From NCBI GenBank assembly GCA_031284315.1, contig JAITAB010000058.1, forward strand, positions 11,800 through 75,799: a DNA stretch of 64,000 nucleotides, in the 5' to 3' direction. Numbering within the stretch: position 1 is the first letter of the stretch; each line of letters starts with the position of its first letter. The notes below the pieces were generated by a model that was not told the origin of the DNA, made no database searches, and saw only the letters and a program-made list of their open reading frames with translations. This DNA is from Campylobacteraceae bacterium (GTDB taxonomy: Bacteria; Campylobacterota; Campylobacteria; Campylobacterales; Campylobacteraceae). Shown one piece after another: positions 34,404-58,903 of the stretch. Both the position numbers and the translations under genes were made by a program.

Positions 34404-36344
34404 ATGCAAATAAAATTATCGCATTTGCTATCGGCATTTGTCACAACAAGCGCGGTATTAAGCGCAAACGAGGATATGCAGCTTCCCATAAAAAAAGTAT
34501 CGCTTTTTTCTTCGGGTATAGGTTACTTTGAACGCGGCGGCGAAGTTGATGGTTCTGCGAATTTGACGCTGCCGTTTGAAATCACGGCGATAGACGACGC
34601 CCTGAAATCGCTTATCATACATGACCCCGCGACTAACGCGCCTTTGGTCAGTTACGCGTCTGAGGATTTGCAAAAGATGCTATCCGAGCTTAAAATTAAC
34701 TTGTCGGGCAATCCGAGCGTTGCGCAGATACTCCACTCTCTCAAAGGCGCGGAATTGGAGATATACGCGCCAAATAAAATTGTCGGCAAAATCATCGGCA
34801 CGCAGGTCAATAGAGAGAAAAATTATGACGAATTATCACTTTTTGTGAACGGCAATATACAGGTCGTATCGCTGAGCAATGTAACCTCGTACAGATTTAC
34901 GGACGAGAAAATATCGCATGATTTGGCGCGCGCTTTGGATATTATGCTAAACTCCAAGCAGAGCGTCAAAAATATCAATGTCTATCTGCCCTCTTCCAAA
35001 AAACGCCCTGTTTTTGTCAGTTACACTATACCTACGCCCGTTTGGAAAGCGACTTACAGGCTTGATTTGTCTGCCAAACAACCGTTTTTGCAAGGCTGGG
35101 CGATAGTGGATAATGCGGGCGATACGGATTGGAAAGGCGTGGAACTTTCGCTCGTAGTGGGACGCCCCGTATCTTTTACACAACCTTTATACATGCCGTA
35201 TTTTTTACAACGCCCGTCTCTACCATTGTCAATAGAAGGATTTGCCGAAGCAAAAAGCTATGAAAGCGGTTATGAAGTATCAAATAAACAACTATTGCGA
35301 AAATCAGTATCGTCCGCTCCGACAATGGCAATGGCAGATATGATTTATGCGGAAGAGTCTGATTACGATGTTCCGCAATCCAAAAACGCGGGAGAGCAGT
35401 TCATATTTACGCTTAAAAATCCTGTTACCTTGGAACGCAGGCAAAGCGCGATGATACCGTTCGCGCAAGGCGGTTTAAAGGTGCGAAAAGTATCTATCTT
35501 TACACATATTCCGCAAAGTTCAAGCGTAAATCCCGCACTCGGCGCAGAGATTGTGAACACTCTGGGGATTAAACTTCCCTCAGGCGTCATAACCGTATAT
35601 GACGGCGGCACATTTGCAGGCGATGCCCTTATGGATTTTTTGGCAGAGGGCGCGAAACGGCTTATCTCTTATGGGGACGATTTGGCGGTAAAAGGCACAG
35701 TTTCGCAATCTTCAAAAACGCAGTTTGACAGCGTCAAAATCTCAAAAGGCGTCATGACGATAATGGAAAAAACGATTTATGAAAAAATTTACGCACTAAA
35801 AAACAGCGATAAAACGGATAAAAATATTATTTTAGAGCATCCGTTTACAGCCGGCGCAAATTTGGTAACGCCTGCCAAATATGCTGAAAAAACAAGCTCG
35901 GCTTATCGATTTGATTTCGTTTTGCCTGCAAACAAAGAGTTGATATACAGTGTCAAAGAGGATAAATTAAACAGACAGACGATTGGCATATTGAGTATGG
36001 ATTACACAACTTTGGCGCTATTTTCTACCAATAAGGATTTTCCTACCAATGTAAAAAATGCTCTTCAAGAGGCAGTGCGCCTTACAAACGCCGTTAAAGC
36101 CGAAGAAAATAAACTAAGCAGTGCGCGGAGTGCGCTTGTGGAAAACGCTAACGAACAGGAAAGAATCCGCAAAAACATAACGGTTGTGGGCAATGATTCG
36201 CCGCAGGGTCAAGAGTATATCAAAAAATTAAGCACGATAGACGGCGAAATAGAGCAGCAATATAAAAATATAGAGAACATTCAAAAAAGCCTGCAAAAAG
36301 CGCAAGAGGCGTTTGAGAATTATATAGCAGGTTTGAATGTATAA
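34404..36344 (+). CDS. DUF4139 / TIGR02231-like secreted protein with C-terminal coiled coil
   Basis: Signal peptide. PVWKATYRLDL.., GWAIVDNAGDTDWKGVELSLVVGRPVSF resembles the DUF4139 core (recognised by eye). The C-terminal ~100 aa is heptad-like. Confidence 0.65.
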   Translation: MQIKLSHLLSAFVTTSAVLSANEDMQLPIKKVSLFSSGIGYFERGGEVDGSANLTLPFEITAIDDALKSLIIHDPATNAPLVSYASEDLQKMLSELKINLSGNPSVAQILHSLKGAELEIYAPNKIVGKIIGTQVNREKNYDELSLFVNGNIQVVSLSNVTSYRFTDEKISHDLARALDIMLNSKQSVKNINVYLPSSKKRPVFVSYTIPTPVWKATYRLDLSAKQPFLQGWAIVDNAGDTDWKGVELSLVVGRPVSFTQPLYMPYFLQRPSLPLSIEGFAEAKSYESGYEVSNKQLLRKSVSSAPTMAMADMIYAEESDYDVPQSKNAGEQFIFTLKNPVTLERRQSAMIPFAQGGLKVRKVSIFTHIPQSSSVNPALGAEIVNTLGIKLPSGVITVYDGGTFAGDALMDFLAEGAKRLISYGDDLAVKGTVSQSSKTQFDSVKISKGVMTIMEKTIYEKIYALKNSDKTDKNIILEHPFTAGANLVTPAKYAEKTSSAYRFDFVLPANKELIYSVKEDKLNRQTIGILSMDYTTLALFSTNKDFPTNVKNALQEAVRLTNAVKAEENKLSSARSALVENANEQERIRKNITVVGNDSPQGQEYIKKLSTIDGEIEQQYKNIENIQKSLQKAQEAFENYIAGLNV

Positions 36345-36513
36345 ATAGTGTGTAATAATGCGATAAAAATTGCAATTTGGCATGTGGGTCTGCGCTATTG
36401 CGTTTTTTAAAAGCTCTTTGTATGAAAAAATGTAAAAAGCTAAATTGCAGACATCGCTTTAAAGCCGCATTTTCGCGCTCAAAACCGTTTATATCATAAT
36501 TTTGCGGGAGGTT

Positions 36514-37707
36514 TTATTTCTTGTCTTTGTTTATGATTTTCTCATGCCACTCTAAAAGCGTTTTTTCAAAGCCTATGCCTGAACTTTTGTAAAAATCAAG
36601 CTCTATTTGCGTATATTTTTGCTTTACCCAGCCGCCGAAATCATGCGGATACAAATAGCCTTTATTTAGCGGACTTTTCAAATGTTCAGGTACTTCAAGC
36701 GCTTTGTTTTCGCTGACATATTTTTGCGCTTTGCCGATAGCGGCATAGGAGCTGTTTGACTTGGGACTTGAAGCGAGATATACGACGCATTGCGCAAGTA
36801 TGATGCGCGCTTCGGGATAGCCTATTTTGCCGACTAACAGCAGTGTGTTAGCGGCAACGCCAAGCGCGTTTGGATTTGCGTTGCCTATATCTTCACTTGA
36901 TAAAATCGCCAATCTTCGCGCGATAAAATCAGGGCTTTCGCCGCCGTCTATCAATCTTGCCAGATAATACAAAGCGGCGTTTATATCGCTGCCTCTGATG
37001 CTTTTTATCATGGCGGATATGAGATTGTAGTGCGTATTGTCGCTGCTAACGCCGTCTTTTAGAGCATGCGGACGGAGATTTTTCAACAACTCCAAATCAA
37101 CATTATCGCTCACATGCAGAGCGTATTCCAAAAGATTCAGAAGCGACCTGCTGTCGCCCGCGCTTGAACTTATCAGATATGATTTCGCCTCTTCACTTAT
37201 GGTAAATGTCAGTTTTTTTTGAACGCGCTTTAAAATCTCTTCCAAATCCTCAAACTCAAGCTGCTTAAATTCAAACAGCATGGCACGCGAACGAATGCCT
37301 GCTGTAAGCGAAAAATAGGGGTTTTCGGTAGAAGCGCCGATGATAATTGCGCTTGCGTTTTCCATAGGTATCAAAAGCACTTCCTGCTGCGTTTTTGAGA
37401 GCCTGTGAACCTCGTCTATAAAGATAATGGGTTTTGCAAGCGTATTTTGATACTGCGCAAAGATTTTGCGAAACTCTTCTACTTTCAAACTTGTGGCGTC
37501 AAGCTCATAAAACGGGCTTTCCAGCGTATTTGCCACGACTCTTGCCATTGTGGTTTTGCCCGTACCCGGAGGTCCGAAAAACATGGAATGGGGCATTTTG
37601 CCGCTCTTTAAAAGCTTGCAAAACGGCGCGTCCGGGCTTGTCAAATGCTTTTGTCCGCATATATCTTCTATATTTTTTGGTCTGAAAGATATAGCGAGAT
37701 TTTCCAT
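36514..37707 (-). CDS. rarA: Replication-associated recombination protein A (AAA+ ATPase)
   Basis: Walker A GPPGTGKTT, Walker B IFIDEVHR, a sensor region, and the C-terminal MgsA domain (DINAALYYLARL..GE). Confidence 0.92.
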   Translation of the reverse strand: MENLAISFRPKNIEDICGQKHLTSPDAPFCKLLKSGKMPHSMFFGPPGTGKTTMARVVANTLESPFYELDATSLKVEEFRKIFAQYQNTLAKPIIFIDEVHRLSKTQQEVLLIPMENASAIIIGASTENPYFSLTAGIRSRAMLFEFKQLEFEDLEEILKRVQKKLTFTISEEAKSYLISSSAGDSRSLLNLLEYALHVSDNVDLELLKNLRPHALKDGVSSDNTHYNLISAMIKSIRGSDINAALYYLARLIDGGESPDFIARRLAILSSEDIGNANPNALGVAANTLLLVGKIGYPEARIILAQCVVYLASSPKSNSSYAAIGKAQKYVSENKALEVPEHLKSPLNKGYLYPHDFGGWVKQKYTQIELDFYKSSGIGFEKTLLEWHEKIINKDKK

Positions 37708-46578: not shown

Positions 46579-47919
46579 ATGATAGAAAGATATTCAAGAA
46601 AAGAGATGAAAGAAAAATGGACTCTCAAAGCAAAATACGATGCTTGGCTTAGAGTTGAAAAATCTGTCGTTAAAGCTTGGAATAAACTGGGGCTTATACC
46701 CGATAGCGACTGCGAAAAGATAATAAAAAACGCCGCATTTGATATAGATAGAATCGAAACGATAGAAAAAGAGACAAAGCACGATGTTATCGCATTTTTG
46801 ACATCTGTATCGGAAAGCTTGGGCAAAGAGAGTCGTTTTGTGCACTACGGCATGACAAGCTCGGACTGTATAGATACGGCGGTAGCTTTGCAAATAAAAG
46901 AGTCTCTTGAACTTATCATTGAAGATGTGAATTTGCTTTTAAACGCTCTCAAAAAAAGAGCCGCAGAACATAAATATACGCTCATGGCGGGACGCAGCCA
47001 CGGCATACACGGCGAACCGATAACATTCGGACTTGTTTTAGCGATATGGTATGACGAGGTAAAAAGAAGTCTTGAAAATCTACAATATGTAAAGCGCGTG
47101 ATAAGCGCAGGAAAGATAAGCGGCGCTATGGGCAATTTCGCGCACGCTCCCGTTGAACTTGAAGAGATAGTCTGCGCCGATTTGGGTCTTTCGCCCGCGC
47201 CCGCGTCAAATCAAATAATACAGCGCGACCGTTATGCCGCACTTTTTAATGCGCTCGCCCTTTTAGCCTCTTCATGCGAAAAAATAGCGGTCGCGATACG
47301 CCACTACCAAAGAACAGAAGTGTATGAAGCGGAAGAGTTTTTCTCAAAAGGGCAAAAAGGCAGCTCCGCCATGCCGCACAAAAGAAATCCCGTCCTTAGC
47401 GAAAATATCACGGGACTTTGCCGCGTCATAAGAAGTTACGCCGCGCCCGCCATGGAAAATGTAGCCTTGTGGCATGAGCGGGATATAAGCCACAGCTCGG
47501 TTGAGAGATTTATCCTGCCTGACGGTTTTATCACTACTGATTTTATGCTGGCAAGATTAAATAATTTGATAGAAAATCTTCTCATATATCCGAAAAATAT
47601 GCTGAAAAATTTAAATCTGACAGGCGGACTTGTGTTTTCGCAGCGCATTTTATTAGAATTGCCCATGCGCGGCGTATCAAGAGAGGATGCTTATAAAATA
47701 GTGCAAAGAAACGCTATGAGAGTTTGGGAAGATTTACAGCAGGGATTCGCCGCTGTAAATGAAAAAGGCGAGAGTCTGTTTTTGCAAAATCTGCTTTTGG
47801 ACGAAGATTTGACGACAAAACTGACAAAAGAGGAGATACGAGCCTGCTTTGACTATGACTATTACACAAAAAATGTGGATAAAATTTTTAATCGTGTTTT
47901 TGGAGGAAATGAAAAATAA
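46579..47919 (+). CDS. purB: Adenylosuccinate lyase
   Basis: MIERYSRKEM..W, and the signature SSAMPHKRNP. The internal ATG at 46579 is preferred over the ORF-track start. The stop shares one nt with the nrdA ATG. Confidence 0.94.
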   Translation: MIERYSRKEMKEKWTLKAKYDAWLRVEKSVVKAWNKLGLIPDSDCEKIIKNAAFDIDRIETIEKETKHDVIAFLTSVSESLGKESRFVHYGMTSSDCIDTAVALQIKESLELIIEDVNLLLNALKKRAAEHKYTLMAGRSHGIHGEPITFGLVLAIWYDEVKRSLENLQYVKRVISAGKISGAMGNFAHAPVELEEIVCADLGLSPAPASNQIIQRDRYAALFNALALLASSCEKIAVAIRHYQRTEVYEAEEFFSKGQKGSSAMPHKRNPVLSENITGLCRVIRSYAAPAMENVALWHERDISHSSVERFILPDGFITTDFMLARLNNLIENLLIYPKNMLKNLNLTGGLVFSQRILLELPMRGVSREDAYKIVQRNAMRVWEDLQQGFAAVNEKGESLFLQNLLLDEDLTTKLTKEEIRACFDYDYYTKNVDKIFNRVFGGNEK

Positions 47920-50288
47920 TGCTTACAGTTATCAAAAGAAGCGGCAGAACCGAACCGCTTGATATATCAAAAATCAAAAAATATACGTCTGAATCCGTTA
48001 AAGACTTGGATAATGTAAGTCTAAGCGAGCTTGAAGTGGACGCAAAGATACAGTTTCGCGACCAGATAACTACTGCTGAGATACAGCAAACTCTCATTAA
48101 AACGGCTGTGGACAAGATAGATGTGGATAGGCCGAATTGGACATTTGTCGCCGCGCGGCTCTTTTTGTACGATTTGTATCACAGAGTGAACGGCTTTTCG
48201 GGGTACGGACATTTGAAAGATTATTTTGAAAAAGGCGAAAAAGAGGGGCGAATTGTTTTGGGCTTGAAAAAAAAGTATGATTTGGACGATTTGGACGCCT
48301 ATATAGACTCTTCGCGCGATTTGCAGTTCACATATCTTGGCGTAAAAACGCTCCATGACAGATATTTATTGAAAAACCGCAAAGGCGAACCGATAGAGCT
48401 TCCTCAGCACATGTTTATGGCGATAGCGATGTTTTTGGCGCAAAATGAGTTAAATTCGCAGGATTGGGCGAAAAAGTTTTATGATTTGATAAGCAAATTT
48501 GAAGTTATGCCCGCGACCCCTACTCTTTCCAACGCCAGAACGCCGCGCCATCAATTAAGCTCCTGCTATGTCGGCTCCACTCCCGATAATATAGAAGGAA
48601 TATTTGACAGTTTTAAAGAGATGTCGCTTTTAAGCAAATACGGCGGCGGCATCGGCTGGGATTGGAATCTCGTACGCGCAATGGGCGGCATGATAGACGG
48701 ACACAAAAACGCGGCGGGCGGCGTTATACCGTTTCTGAAAATCACAAACGACATCGCCGTAGCCGTTGACCAGCTCGGCACAAGAAAAGGCGCGATTGCC
48801 GTATATATAGAGCCTTGGCACATGGATGTGTCCGACTTTTTGGATTTGAAAAAAAATTCCGGCGAAGAGAGACGCCGCACGCATGAACTGTTTCCGTCTC
48901 TTTGGATAAACGACCTGTTCATGAAGCGCATAGAACAAGACGCCATGTGGACGCTTTTTGACCCTGCCGATACGCCTGATTTATGCGGATTGTACAGCGA
49001 AGAGTTTGAAAAAAGATATGAAGAATATGAGAAAAATCCGGATATTCCAAAAGAGTTTATAAAAGCAAAAGATCTTTGGAAAAAAATACTTACGAACTAT
49101 TTTGAGTCGGGAAGTCCGTTTTTGTGTTTCAAAGACAATGCCAACAGAGCCAATCCCAACAACCACACGGGAATCATCAGAAGTTCCAACCTCTGCACGG
49201 AAATATTTCAAAATACGCAGCCAAACCACTACATGATAAAAGTTGTCTTTAACGACGGCGAAACGCGCCTATTTGAGGAAAACGAGGATATAACAACGGA
49301 TGTCGGCATAACCAAAAAAGCCAAAAAAATAACCGCGCTTGATACCATCGGCGGCAAAGAGATATTTATCGTGGAAAAAGCCGTAAAAGAGGGAAAAACC
49401 GCCGTTTGCAACTTGGCAAGTATAAACCTCTCCAAAGTGAATACAAAAGAGGATATAGAAAGAGTAGCGCCGATAGCGATTAGAATGTTAGATAATGTCA
49501 TAGACCTTAACTTTTACCCGCATGCCAAAGTCAAACGCACCAACCTGCTCTCGCGCTCCATAGGTTTGGGCGTCATGGGCGAAGCGCAAATGCTCGCAGA
49601 ACAGGGCATCACATGGGGCAAATACGACCATTTATCAAAAATAGACGAAATCATGGAAGCGATAAGTTATAACGCCATCAAAGCGTCAAGCAATTTGAGT
49701 TTGGAAAAGGGAGCGTATCCTGAATTTGAAGGCTCAAAATGGAGCAAAGGGATATTTCCCATAGATATCGCGAACGAAAACGCAAAAAAACTCGTGGACA
49801 GAGGCGGGCTTTTCGGATATACCTATGACTGGGAAAAATTAAGAGAAAAAGTGAAAAAAGACGGCATGCGCAACGGCTACCTCATGGCTATCGCGCCCAC
49901 AAGCTCCATTTCGATACTTGTAGGCACTACGCAAACGATAGAGCCTGTCTATAAAAGAAAGTGGTTTGAAGAGAATTTATCGGGCATGATACCCGTAACC
50001 GCGCCGAAACTCTCGCCCGATACTTGGGGATTTTACACGCCCGCGTATGAACTTGACCAAAGGCTTTTGATACAAGCAGGCGCCGTCCGCCAAAAGTGGA
50101 TAGACCAGGGGCAGAGCCTGAATATCTTTATCATGCTTGACAAAGCGAGCGGAAAATACCTAAACGATATTTATCTGTTGGGCTGGAAACTCGGGCTAAA
50201 ATCGGTATATTATCTGCGAAGCCAGTCGCCCGAAACACACTCCGTAGATGTAGCCGACAGAAGCATAGAGTGCGACGGCTGCCAATAG
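47919..50288 (+). CDS. nrdA: Ribonucleoside-diphosphate reductase alpha subunit (class Ia)
   Basis: N-terminal ATP-cone (VIKRSGRTEPLD), active-site NLCTEI, and a C-terminal CDGCQ redox tail. Confidence 0.96.
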   Translation: MLTVIKRSGRTEPLDISKIKKYTSESVKDLDNVSLSELEVDAKIQFRDQITTAEIQQTLIKTAVDKIDVDRPNWTFVAARLFLYDLYHRVNGFSGYGHLKDYFEKGEKEGRIVLGLKKKYDLDDLDAYIDSSRDLQFTYLGVKTLHDRYLLKNRKGEPIELPQHMFMAIAMFLAQNELNSQDWAKKFYDLISKFEVMPATPTLSNARTPRHQLSSCYVGSTPDNIEGIFDSFKEMSLLSKYGGGIGWDWNLVRAMGGMIDGHKNAAGGVIPFLKITNDIAVAVDQLGTRKGAIAVYIEPWHMDVSDFLDLKKNSGEERRRTHELFPSLWINDLFMKRIEQDAMWTLFDPADTPDLCGLYSEEFEKRYEEYEKNPDIPKEFIKAKDLWKKILTNYFESGSPFLCFKDNANRANPNNHTGIIRSSNLCTEIFQNTQPNHYMIKVVFNDGETRLFEENEDITTDVGITKKAKKITALDTIGGKEIFIVEKAVKEGKTAVCNLASINLSKVNTKEDIERVAPIAIRMLDNVIDLNFYPHAKVKRTNLLSRSIGLGVMGEAQMLAEQGITWGKYDHLSKIDEIMEAISYNAIKASSNLSLEKGAYPEFEGSKWSKGIFPIDIANENAKKLVDRGGLFGYTYDWEKLREKVKKDGMRNGYLMAIAPTSSISILVGTTQTIEPVYKRKWFEENLSGMIPVTAPKLSPDTWGFYTPAYELDQRLLIQAGAVRQKWIDQGQSLNIFIMLDKASGKYLNDIYLLGWKLGLKSVYYLRSQSPETHSVDVADRSIECDGCQ

Positions 50289-50481
50289 GAGCGTTTACCG
50301 CTTAATTTTGGCAAAAACGCGGGAAATTGAAAGGCGTATGCGAAAGATAGCTTTGCGGACTGTTTAAAATATCGGCGGGACATTAAAGAACAGCTTTGCA
50401 TATTGATATTATGAATGGTATATATTACTTTTACGCTATTTTAAATTATATCCATAACTTCGGCTCTCATGCGTAAAACTT

Positions 50482-50499
50482 GGCGCGGATTTCCGCGCC
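50482..50499. terminator. GC-rich hairpin between convergent genes
   Basis: GGCGCGG-attt-CCGCGCC, between the nrdA stop (50288) and the end of the minus-strand lipoprotein gene (50508). Confidence 0.4.
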
Positions 50500-50507
50500 C
50501 GTTAAAA

Positions 50508-51335
50508 TCAAGTACCTTCGGCGATAAATTCTCCTTTTACAAAATGTATCGTTGAACTTATATTACCGCCGCCATAGAAAACAATGCCCTGCCATTCATA
50601 ACGCGCTCCATCAGCGTTATTATTGTGAACGCATTGCCAATCTATCCACTTGTATTCATCGCTGCTTGATATACTGCATCACCCTCGTCAAACACGCCGC
50701 TTGCTTCTATCTTTTCATAATAGCTGTTAATCTCAGCTGTCATGTTGGCATTTTCATAAACTACGCTAAACAATTCCCAATCAGGAGCGCCGTTCGGATG
50801 CCCGAAAACTTCGTCAAAATAAGCCTCAGTAGTAACAGGCAGGGAGTTGTTTTGATGAGCCATAGTCAATCTAATAATATAACCGCTCACGCTTTCATTT
50901 CTGCTGTACATACTTCTAAGATTGCAGCTCTCCCAAGCGCTGCCCCAAATGCCTGCATAGCAAATACTACCGTATAACTCGTCATAACCTTGACTTTTAA
51001 AATCAAAATTCGGGCTAAAATACATACGATGATCAACGCCAAATACCCTTTCGCCTTCAATAACAAAGTTTTTCTCTTTTGTTAGAGTGTCATAAAAGCT
51101 TTGGGCGTCGCTTTGCGAAATTTGTATATAATTTGCAACTCTCATTGAGCCAACAATCTTATCTCTGTAAGGCGTGTCGTCAAAAGGCGGGAAAGTTTCT
51201 GTTAGATAATTTGAGAGGATATTATTGCCGTTTATAGAAGTGTTATCGGTGGATTTACCCCCCCCCCCCGCTGCCGCAGGCTGCTAAAAGCATGGAAACC
51301 AAAACTGCGCAAAGCAGTTTAACCGTTGTGTTCAT
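50508..51335 (-). pseudogene. Poly-G phase-variable lipoprotein gene (currently OFF, plus a second frameshift). Paralog of 58175..58903.
   Basis: The ATG at 51335 gives MNTTVKLLCAVLVSMLLAACGSGGGG, then TAA directly after the G12 tract. Reading with G11 or G14 joins the frame of ORF 50642..51145. The C-terminal ~49 codons (YKWIDWQCVHNNNADGARYEWQGIVF..STIHFVKGEF) lie in yet another frame. Confidence 0.8.
51258..51269 (-). repeat. Homopolymeric tract: C12 on the + strand, G12 on the coding strand
   Basis: Twelve consecutive C residues were counted at 51258-51269, directly after the lipobox codons. Confidence 0.95.
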
Positions 51336-51589
51336 ATTTTCTCCTTTATGAAAAATTAAATATAGCATCATAATATAAAAAACATTAATGTAAAATAAAT
51401 ATCCGAGCTAAACAGTATTTAATGATAAAATATACTCATGTCGTCTGCCGCTCTTGCCGCCGTTTATCGCGGATCAAGCATTTGGAAGTTAAAAAATATA
51501 AAAACCGTTAAGAAAAAAACTCTTCACTATTTTGGAGTTTGCCGTCTGCCGTATAAAAACTTTTTAAAGCGTTCCGCGCCGTAATCATA

Positions 51590-51630
51590 CAAAATAAACG
51601 CCGCACATGCAAGGCGCGGCGTTTATTTTG
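51590..51630. terminator. Long perfect hairpin (15-bp stem), possibly a bidirectional terminator
   Basis: CAAAATAAACGCCGC (51590-51604), an 11-nt loop, then GCGGCGTTTATTTTG (51616-51630). The A/T-rich stem base gives U-runs on either strand. Confidence 0.5.
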
Positions 51631-52108
51631 TCCGCCCTGCCCTTTTAAAAAACATAATTTCAAGATTTTTATATAAATTGCCTGCGAGACAACCTGCTCT
51701 TACCGTTTGTCTTTACGCTTGCGTCTGATAATATCGTTCGTGTCAATTGCGGCAGTACAGAGAGCAAAAACGGTATCTGCCGCCGCTAAGGCTGTTTTTA
51801 AAATAGCGCTGTCTGTCTTTTTCGTCATTGGAAGCGTGCAAAGCGTTATAAAACGACATAATATACAATCAAAAAATATCAAATAACTTGAATTTGAGTC
51901 GATAGTTTATATTTTTGGATTGCCGCGGCATTTTGCGTCCGCGATAACGGAGAAAAATCGTCTCTTTTAAAGGGGTACTGTTATGCATGATACATTTAAA
52001 AAGCAATAACGCGCTAAAACTTTTAAAAGGAATGCTGTTATGTATGGACAAAACCTTAAAATACCAAAGACCGCGCATAATCGCCTTTTAAAAGAAATAC
52101 CGTTTGTA

Positions 52109-52431
52109 CGCAATGACGGGAGAGAATTGTCTCCCGCGGCGCATGCGAAATGTAGGTGTTCTTTTCGTCATTCCCGCGCGAATGATAGCCTTTCGTAGAA
52201 AGCTCATCACGAGGCGGGCGGGAATCTATTTTTTCATCATAAAAATCCCTTTTTGTTCCGTCATTGCGAGGAATAAAATGACGAGGTAATCCAAATGGCA
52301 TAAAACAATTAGAGTTTACAAATAAAAAGTTTTATTTTAAGGGCGGGTTGATTTTTTTTATTTTTCTGGATTGCTTTGCGGCGCTTCCATTGGCGAAATG
52401 TATGGATTCCCGCCTGCGCGGGAATGACAGA
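52109..52431. repeat. Cluster of REP-like palindromic elements upstream of the CRISPR array
   Basis: 52109-52136: acgcaatgacg plus the hairpin CGGGAGA-gaattg-TCTCCCG. 52166-52226: cgtcattcccgcgcg ... gcgggcgggaatc. 52259-52292: gtcattgcgagg..aatgacgagg. 52403-52431 is identical to 20678-20706. Confidence 0.75.
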
Positions 52432-52493
52432 GAGAGAATAAACTCTGCTTGTTCTCCATTACGCTTCGCTTACCGTTCGGCGGCAAAAATGAC

Positions 52494-53241
52494 GGGAAAA
52501 TACAACTTTGCGTCGGTTCTTGAGGACTTGGAAGCTGCGTACAATTGCACGCGGCTGATTTCAATACAACTTGTGTCGGTTCATGCAACCTTTTAGAATG
52601 GCAGGACAGCTGCGTTGTTTTATTTCAATACAACTTTTGTGTCGGTTCATGGCGGAGCAGATAGAGGCGGGCGTTTACGAATTGTCATTTCAATACAACT
52701 TTTGTGTCGGTTCATGCAATTTTAGAAGATTATGGAATTATAAGAAACAATATTTCAATACAACTTTTGTGTCGGTTCATGGGGACGAAGGGGTGGCGTC
52801 ATCGCGTTTACACATCGTAATTTCAATACAACTTTTGTGTCGGTTCATGAATGACAGAGGTTCTAAAATTCGCGAAGCAATTTGTATTTCAATACAACTT
52901 TTGTGTCGGTTCATGTATTTGATTATGTATATATATGTGTGTGTGTTGATAATTTCAATACAACTTTTGTGTCGGTTCATGCTCATCAGTAGCGTTTTGT
53001 AAAGAGGTCGTAAGTATTTCAATACAACTTTTGTGTCGGTTCATGGTAAAACAAAAATATGGTATTGATGTAAACAGCAATTTCAATACAACTTTTGTGT
53101 CGGTTCATGGCTAAAAGTATAAAGCAAAGTAAAGTATATTTTTATATTTCAATACAACTTTTGTGTCGATTCATGTTTTTTTTGCTCTCTCTTTTGTCAT
53201 TTTTATTTCTTATTTCAATACAGCTTTTGTATAAAATTTAA
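52494..53241. CRISPR. CRISPR array with a 30-nt repeat ATTTCAATACAACTTTTGTGTCGGTTCATG. 11 repeats plus one decayed remnant. No adjacent cas genes.
   Basis: Repeats start at 52558 (28 nt, 2-nt deletion), 52622, 52687, 52752, 52820, 52886, 52952, 53016, 53080, 53146 (1 mismatch) and 53212 (distal half diverged). A remnant lies at 52494-52522. Spacers are 34-38 nt and all different. Confidence 0.95.
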
Positions 53242-58174: not shown

Positions 58175-58903
58175 TTAAAATATCTGTTTGCCAAAACGAA
58201 CATAAGATGTTTCCGGACTTCCGACATCGAACTCTAAGGTGAAATAATAAAAAGCATCCGCCGTACCTTTTTCGCAAGTCCAAAAATAATCTATACCGTA
58301 GGTATAGTAGTAGGTATAGCAGTAAACATCGGCATCGCTTATATCAAAAAGCTTTCCGCTTCCCATCGCCTCTGCATAATATGCGGCAAATTCCGCGCTC
58401 ATGTTACCCTCGTAAGTTGCTGTTAATTCTGCATATATAGGCGAACCAAACATTTTACCGAATACCTCATCAAATTTGCCGTCTCCTATGCTTCTGTCGG
58501 ACGCAAGTTGCATGTGTGCTCTCGAACTGTCGTCGTAAGCATAAGCATTGATGTTAATGTGCGCGTTTATCAAATTTTTACTCCCGGGGTTCTTCAAGTA
58601 ATAGTCGTAGTTAAAATTATCGTCACTTATATAATTTTGATAAAAAAGCGTAAAATCTTTCCGGCTTATCGTAATATTAAGCTCTCTTGCCGGCTGCGTA
58701 GAGCTTTCTTCTTGGTATGCCAAACTCTTTGTCTCGCCAATTTTAGTATAACCCGCAGTGTCAAGCGGCGGGATATCCGATAGAAAATCGGAAAAATCGC
58801 CGCTGCCGACATTTCCATTGCCGCCGCTTCCGCCGCTTCCGCCGCAGGAAGCCAAAAACAGTACCGCAAAAGCCGTTAAGCTCAACTTAAATAAACATCT
58901 CAT
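58175..58903 (-). CDS. Lipoprotein (intact paralog of the phase-variable gene at 50.5-51.3 kb)
   Basis: MRCLFKLSLTAFAVLFLASCGGSGGSGGNGN has a lipobox followed by a Gly/Ser linker. It shares ..FDEVFG.., ..AE..AYY..., ..W.C....AD..Y.....F and ...F.KG.F blocks with the 50.5-kb gene. Confidence 0.8.
   Translation of the reverse strand: MRCLFKLSLTAFAVLFLASCGGSGGSGGNGNVGSGDFSDFLSDIPPLDTAGYTKIGETKSLAYQEESSTQPARELNITISRKDFTLFYQNYISDDNFNYDYYLKNPGSKNLINAHININAYAYDDSSRAHMQLASDRSIGDGKFDEVFGKMFGSPIYAELTATYEGNMSAEFAAYYAEAMGSGKLFDISDADVYCYTYYYTYGIDYFWTCEKGTADAFYYFTLEFDVGSPETSYVRFGKQIF

Follow-up and report, generated by a model that had tools for sequence, protein, structure and literature searches.

A gene for a small lipoprotein, broken by two changes of reading frame, occupies the minus strand between 50508 and 51335 of the window, that is, of the whole 64,000-nt stretch of Campylobacteraceae bacterium DNA that was analyzed. 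A consensus scan placed a promoter-like site upstream of it (51367..51394, minus strand; TTTACA, a 16-nt spacer, and TATGAT, with 10/12 positions matched), and reading of the sequence placed a ribosome-binding site, AAGGAG (51346-51341, minus strand), 5 nt 5' of the ATG; this site is conserved, together with the A+T-rich region upstream, in two homologous loci, L006 and L007. The start codon (51335-51333, minus strand) opens a predicted lipoprotein signal peptide, MNTTVKLLCAVLVSMLLAAC (51276..51335, minus strand), whose L-A-A-C lipobox ends in the Cys codon at 51278-51276 and is followed by Gly-Ser. The lipobox conforms to the pattern [LVI][ASTVI][GAS]C, a feature shared by about 35 family members, and the signal peptide as a whole matches positions 1-25 of the family hidden Markov model (HMM) and is near-identical to those of the homologs P0003, P0005, and L006. 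The signal peptidase II LspA is encoded in the genome (PF01252 match at C31:44630-45022, 80.3 bits, above the cut-off). We infer that the lipoprotein would be exposed at the cell surface.

Right behind Cys-Gly-Ser, 22 codons into the gene, the codons of a Gly linker form a G12 homopolymer (51258..51269, minus strand), the putative slippage switch, and the 3' end of this tract abuts a TAA (51255..51257, minus strand) that closes the signal-peptide frame in what would be the OFF phase. These coordinates, from the ATG through the lipoprotein signal and the 12 G residues to the in-frame TAA, had been given in an initial annotation and held on rereading and translation; the same GGG-TAA arrangement is also seen after the G15 tract of L006. 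The lipoprotein body follows as 204 codons that, at G12, are translated one frame off the signal peptide (50645..51256, minus strand), and it matches a family HMM to which this gene had not contributed with an E value of 6.7e-39 over HMM positions 19-182. The body is 47-50% identical to P0002 and P0003. The body frame ends at a premature TAG (50642..50644, minus strand) preceded by a 12-residue out-of-frame tail, DAVYQAAMNTSG, while a stranded C-terminal remnant of 56 codons plus a TGA (50508..50678, minus strand; TGA at 50510-50508) is found in the frame of the signal peptide. On the 3' side of this original stop, we read a GC-rich hairpin, GGCGCGGAAATCCGCGCC (50482..50499, minus strand), as a likely terminator; the consensus scan left it uncalled because its T tail is weak, and comparable hairpins stand after the stops in L006 and L007. 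On the other flank, directly upstream of the lipoprotein promoter, the region 52109-53241 combines REP-like palindromes with a CRISPR array that comprises about eleven repeats and has no cas genes nearby; it shows in the list of open reading frames as repeated ISIQLLCRFM translations.

In silico reading of the tract at lengths of 8 to 16 established its phase logic: G8, G11, and G14 give products of 229-231 aa, and all other lengths give products of 25-35 aa, with G9, G12, and G15 meeting an immediate stop and G10, G13, and G16 a stop 8 codons further on. The G11 and G14 read-throughs thus confirmed two earlier proposals, namely, that removal of one G or addition of two would join the signal to the body. 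A run of eight G residues would be expected 0.30 times in the 64-kb window and was observed solely within this tract, which is thus far beyond chance and the 12 residues of which exceed the length of about 7-8 or more at which a homopolymer in a reading frame is taken to be hypermutable. A protein-cluster look-up further recovered a 230-aa sibling of the window open reading frame, P0056, which is encoded on a contig (L119) of the Logan assembly of run SRR14710909. This contig aligns to window positions 47642-52427 over 4,785 nt with 0 mismatches, and the only gap falls at the tract, which is G11 on L119. Its allele encodes P0056, the 230-aa ON form in which signal and body are joined and the second frameshift is retained. 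The G11/G12 contrast is one between two consensus assemblies that probably derive from the same reads, and miscalled lengths of long G runs in Illumina data may contribute to it. Two other tracts served as controls: that of the family copy on contig C22 is G12 both in the genome and in a Logan contig of the same run, and the JGI and Logan assemblies agree on G15 for that of L006/L120. The equality of both control tracts across assemblers indicates that there is no systematic off-by-one between them; since the G11/G12 gap is the sole difference at the locus and the controls are stable, we conclude that the tract length truly varies. The contrast is the signature expected of a hypermutable tract of which both lengths are abundant, with homopolymer noise in Illumina reads as a possible source as well.

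The tract is not isolated in its genome, a 69-contig draft of 1.83 Mb with 40.3% G+C and 94% completeness. Runs of G or C are distributed bimodally, with 33 of length 6, 7 of length 7, 0 of length 8, and 13 of lengths 9-16, and A/T runs in the same genome fall smoothly with length; G runs of at least 9 are present in 13 of the 14 genomes of the genus. Apart from that in the present gene, the tracts include those in the family member on C22, in a TonB-type receptor, and in an N6-methylase, as well as a cluster of four. In the receptor-like gene, a G11 run (C63:14021-14031) stands directly behind the signal peptide (..LAFLACC) and appears to be in frame, and in the methylase gene, which encodes an NPPY motif, the run is a G14 (C49:45870-45883). 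The cluster (C38:21055-25547) comprises four poly-C tracts (C9, C14, C13, and C10) within 4.5 kb, two of which have near-identical 30-nt flanks and are therefore sited in paralogous genes; it is reminiscent of the phase-variable glycosylation or motility-accessory genes that are clustered in Campylobacter. At C17:5-20 and C43:1-16, contigs terminate in runs of C16 and G16; the assembly breaks at very long tracts, and the genomic tract count is thus an underestimate. A domain search detected neither MutS_I nor MutL_C domains in this 94%-complete genome, and the same search found both in 11/14 control genomes. In this respect the genome resembles that of Campylobacter jejuni, which is not known to have MutS/MutL-type mismatch repair. 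The locus shows four of the features by which contingency loci are recognized: tract length, frame logic, length polymorphism, and genome-wide over-representation of such tracts.

The second lesion was defined with the family HMM, the build of which left this gene out and which matches three segments of the locus. The first comprises residues 1-26 of frame 1, the signal; the second, residues 21-218 of frame 2, covers HMM positions 19-182 and ends in ...ASGVFDEG; and the third, residues 220-250 of frame 1 (CSISS..), covers HMM positions 186-209 and starts with CSISSSDEYKWIDWQC. Because the HMM match jumps frames there, the frame change can be placed between the body-frame codon GGT (50683-50681) and the tail-frame codon TGC (50678-50676); it is a net loss of one nucleotide (50676..50683, minus strand), and frame 1 is shut just 5' of the tail by a TGA at 50681-50679. 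Translation and the HMM split thus bear out the initial annotation in that the body stops early and the C terminus carries on in another frame down to 50508, and they revise it in detail. The shift had been put near 50645-50670 and lies about ten codons upstream of that; the C-terminal stretch had been counted as ~49 codons, and 56 are open, starting at 50678; and IDWQC, which had been paired with YFWTC of the intact paralog, is the DWxC motif of the family, the paralog's YFWTC pairing with YEWQG. In a further correction, the C-terminal stretch proves to share its frame with the signal peptide, which means that at G12 the two shifts offset each other arithmetically. The tail is collinear with the C terminus of P0005 (residues 200-240 of 241; E = 1e-4) and also aligns with P0003 and with the intact paralog at 58175..58903. 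That the second frameshift lies outside repeats was likewise upheld, as its sequence is nonhomopolymeric and identical in the window and in the Logan assembly. The lesion is thus seen in two assemblies (window and L119), both of them consensus sequences; since the shift sequence is the same in the two and P0056 ends at the same TAG, it is not an assembler quirk.

This shift removes about 43 residues and adds the 12-residue nonsense tail, and the in silico reading shows that the full protein is unreachable at any tract length from G8 to G16. The lost segment includes the family-conserved DWxC and YxW motifs and the terminal F-x-K. An AlphaFold (AF2) model of the intact homolog P0003 (pLDDT 82.8, pTM 0.77) has two alpha/beta halves, and 30 of its 80 strand residues, with a pLDDT of about 95, lie past the equivalent point, from Cys194 onward. 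On this model, the 230-aa ON product very probably lacks the folded second half, and the truncation would amount to a loss of function. A fold search of the PDB with the P0003 model gave weak matches only (YwmB, 2fpn, with TM scores of 0.33-0.37, and AdoMetDC-like sandwiches), from which no function could be inferred. A frameshift in nonrepetitive sequence that splits segments collinear with intact relatives is the mark of a pseudogene, and the tail, being still open and still recognizable, indicates that the lesion is recent. We rejected programmed ribosomal frameshifting at the second site, since reading of 50640-50700 revealed no slippery heptamer (X XXY YYZ) or shift-prone stop and the relatives are encoded in one frame; we also rejected separate translation of the tail, the 56 codons of which include no ATG, GTG, or TTG.

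Neither Pfam nor NCBIfam held a meaningful match for the lipoprotein, and a search of 5.8 billion proteins returned only two relatives, P0002 and P0003, at 45-47% identity. A five-row profile recovered 53 representatives among 1.84 billion proteins and 1-7 copies in 9 of the 14 genomes of the genus. The family was not found in Campylobacter proper by protein or profile searches; profile scans of metagenome and genome contigs with an alignment of orthologs returned no relative, and a word-based homology search with a 23-row alignment returned just 6 proteins. To judge from these searches, the family is small and lineage-restricted. The window genome holds three copies: this gene, the intact paralog, and the copy on contig C22. 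The paralog (P0004; 58175..58903, minus strand) is 242 aa long, matches the family profile with an E value of 6.2e-48, and has an LASC lipobox and a Gly/Ser linker in mixed codons with no homopolymer, the longest G run in the linker being 2. The third member (C22:11570-12200; L088/L098) has an LAGC lipobox and, behind it, a G12 tract that leads into AGA TAA. It shares the OFF phase of the present gene, and its body of 179 codons is otherwise open. In the library of representatives, a 556-aa member, P0009, is built of the entire module in three to four tandem copies, all behind one lipobox.

When we read the tether codons of about 35 members at the DNA level, nearly all displayed a lipobox and a Gly-rich tether (C-GGGG-S...) that mixes GGA, GGC, and GGT codons and has G runs of only 2-3. 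Runs of 11 or more occur in three members only, namely, this gene (G12), the C22 copy (G12), and L006 (G15); at the same codons, L121 has an intermediate G6 and L007 lacks a tract. As most members have a mixed-codon tether, the switch represents tether Gly codons turned into a homopolymer, and the tether site tolerates the gain or loss of a glycine. The three long-tract members are all in the same OFF phase (n = 3), which is compatible with chance. The gene with the G6 tether, P0005 on L121, itself lies between two C tracts, a C9 180 nt upstream (142-150) and a C10 470 nt downstream (1519-1528), and the short repeats on either side of it (95-138 and 1609-1696) have counterparts among dispersed elements in the window genome (on C17 and C52).

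The nearest DnaA sequences, 79-95% identical to that of the window genome, are all from metagenome-assembled genomes (MAGs) labeled Campylobacteraceae bacterium; identity is 66-68% to Sulfurospirillum and 59% to Campylobacter showae. Campylobacterales MAGs have been reported from termite guts (PMC9137090). The closest homologs are located at different points of the chromosome: the L006 homolog sits between genes for RmuC and an APP1-like protein and the L007 homolog between that for MgsA and its neighbor. The flanking proteins at these two loci are 59-95% identical to those of the window genome, but the lipoprotein is only 46-47% identical; the 5' untranslated region and signal-peptide DNA are near-identical among this gene, L006, and L007. 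The differing sites, the diverged body, and the conserved 5' end indicate that the family acts like accessory cargo that evolves fast but keeps its 5' module, and on sequence comparison its members are found at different accessory sites from one related genome to the next. No syntenic ortholog was found in the sister species, the closest matches in the genus being distant paralogs. In the window, the MgsA-like gene and its neighbor are only about 180 nt apart (36340-36520), the place at which L007 carries the lipoprotein gene. The site corresponding to that of the L006 lipoprotein, between RmuC and the APP1-like gene (C55:82607-84384), has cysteine-rich Sel1-repeat proteins instead, which resemble the Hcp-like proteins of Helicobacter.

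On the basis of these observations, we consider it probable that the locus is a G-tract translational contingency locus that has separately lost one nucleotide and is now a decaying pseudogene or a truncated allele. The lipobox-adjacent Gly-linker codons would have become a pure G homopolymer, the length of which would be altered by slipped-strand mispairing in replication, and the slips would be left uncorrected because MutS/MutL mismatch repair is undetectable in the genome. A tract of 3n+2 G residues (G11 or G14) would fuse the signal peptide to the body and be ON; one of 3n (G12 as assembled) would run into the immediate TAA and be OFF, yielding a 26-aa prolipoprotein at most; and one of 3n+1 would lead to a stop 8 codons past the tract. 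Separately, one nucleotide would have been lost in ordinary sequence at about 50676-50683, and the ON phase would give 230 aa only. As the full protein lies beyond any tract length, we would be looking at a phase-variable gene turning into a pseudogene or, at best, at a truncated allele. The frames, the G11/G12 polymorphism, the homology of the tail, and the reproducibility of the second shift were observed directly; slippage as the cause and the reversibility of switching we infer. The initial annotation had offered a contingency gene caught decaying and an assembly error as its two options, and we favor the former given the G11/G12 contrast, the stable controls, and the presence of the shift in both assemblies.

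Four other readings were weighed against this one. The gene might be an intact, live contingency gene whose second frameshift arose through an error of sequencing or assembly or reflects a minority variant caught by both assemblers. The genome is a draft in 69 contigs, its closest relatives are all MAGs, and such assemblies do contain consensus errors and strain chimeras; a tail that is open for 56 codons and relative-like implies a lesion that is either very recent or nonexistent. Yet two different assemblers yielded exactly the same sequence at the shift, which is neither a homopolymer nor a repeat, and Illumina indel errors are rare in such sequence; moreover, the one additional base required is found in neither assembly, so that we regard this explanation as very unlikely. 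We find it distinctly unlikely that the tract is no functional switch at all, such that a Gly linker merely drifted to GGG in a dead gene and the G11/G12 difference is homopolymer sequencing noise. The bimodal distribution of tract lengths and their placement in typical contingency genes point to maintained hypermutable tracts, L006 has a G15 at the same codons in a gene without the second lesion, the C22 paralog shares the design with an otherwise open body, and the two control tracts are stable across assemblers. What speaks for drift is that the gene is broken elsewhere, so that nothing selects on the tract now, that such a tract turned up in just 3 of the roughly 40 family members inspected, and that the tract lengths come from consensus assemblies.

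The two remaining explanations concern the product. The truncated 230-aa form could be a functional shortened lipoprotein with its first domain intact, the tract then still turning a variant product ON and OFF; an ON allele does exist in the sample (P0056), and all of the first half of the P0003 model (about residues 50-136) is upstream of the break. This is unlikely in light of what the shift takes away, the conserved DWxC, YxW, and terminal F-x-K along with 30 of 80 strand residues, and of the 12 nonsense residues gained in exchange. Recoding that restores the full-length protein, whether by frameshifting at the second site or by transcriptional slippage on the G tract, is exceedingly improbable: the tidy appearance of signal peptide and tail in one frame at G12 is offset by a body out of frame with both ends, so that two compensating shifts would be required, 50640-50700 provides neither an X XXY YYZ heptamer nor a shift-prone stop context, and the intact homologs do without recoding.

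More speculatively, the contingency locus could be part of a wider system, an idea that we put forward as tentative and, on balance, doubtful. The lipoproteins would form a fast-evolving, relocating cassette family of uncultured, probably insect-gut Campylobacterales, in which a conserved 5' module of promoter, signal peptide, and Gly tether would repeatedly have been made into a poly-G switch by synonymous GGN-to-GGG changes, giving a system akin to antigenic variation in a gut symbiont. If so, an OFF phase that stops right after the tract, as in two orthologs, would still yield a lipidated peptide of 7-8 residues.

As an example of homopolymer phase variation, the locus adds one more clean case, in an uncultured relative of Campylobacter and Sulfurospirillum without detectable MutS/MutL. 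Its main value lies in the tether-to-homopolymer series, the direct G11/G12 contrast, and the permanent lesion in a contingency gene. The series, from glycine tether to switch, is displayed within a single family, with mixed Gly codons in most members, G6 in one, and G11-15 in three, and the lesion illustrates that contingency genes held OFF can acquire ordinary inactivating mutations. There is also a warning for annotation, in that such loci in MAGs are called as N-terminally truncated open reading frames, e.g., P0001 and P0002.

The design itself is already known from Campylobacter and Neisseria, and the understanding of phase variation is unchanged by it. The closest parallel is offered by the poly-G/C contingency loci of C. 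jejuni and its relatives (Fouts et al. 2005, PMC539331; reviewed in PMC11868660). The present gene appears to share with them a long G/C homopolymer in the 5' coding region that would switch expression ON and OFF by frameshift, and its genome shares with theirs a genome-wide set of tracts in surface, glycosylation, and restriction-modification genes, as well as the lack of detected MutS/MutL-type repair noted above for C. jejuni. It differs from them in that the host is an uncultured lineage, the family is uncharacterized, and switching is predicted from sequence. The genic poly-G/C switches in exported proteins and lipoproteins of Neisseria (e.g., hpuA, pilC, and nalP; phasome survey, PMC5953494) likewise have their tract within the codons for the signal peptide of a surface protein or just past them and follow a three-phase logic with one ON phase; organism and protein are unrelated, however, and the tract here is the Gly tether behind a lipobox cysteine. 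With the Vlp, Vsa, and Vpma systems of Mycoplasma (cited in PMC11868660), the family has in common a multigene set of small lipoproteins with a highly conserved 5' end (promoter and signal peptide) and fast-diverging bodies, the members of which switch independently, as those of the present family would. No shufflon or recombinase was seen here; unlike the Mycoplasma families, which use promoter poly-A tracts or site-specific inversion, the present one would rely on poly-G within the coding sequence.
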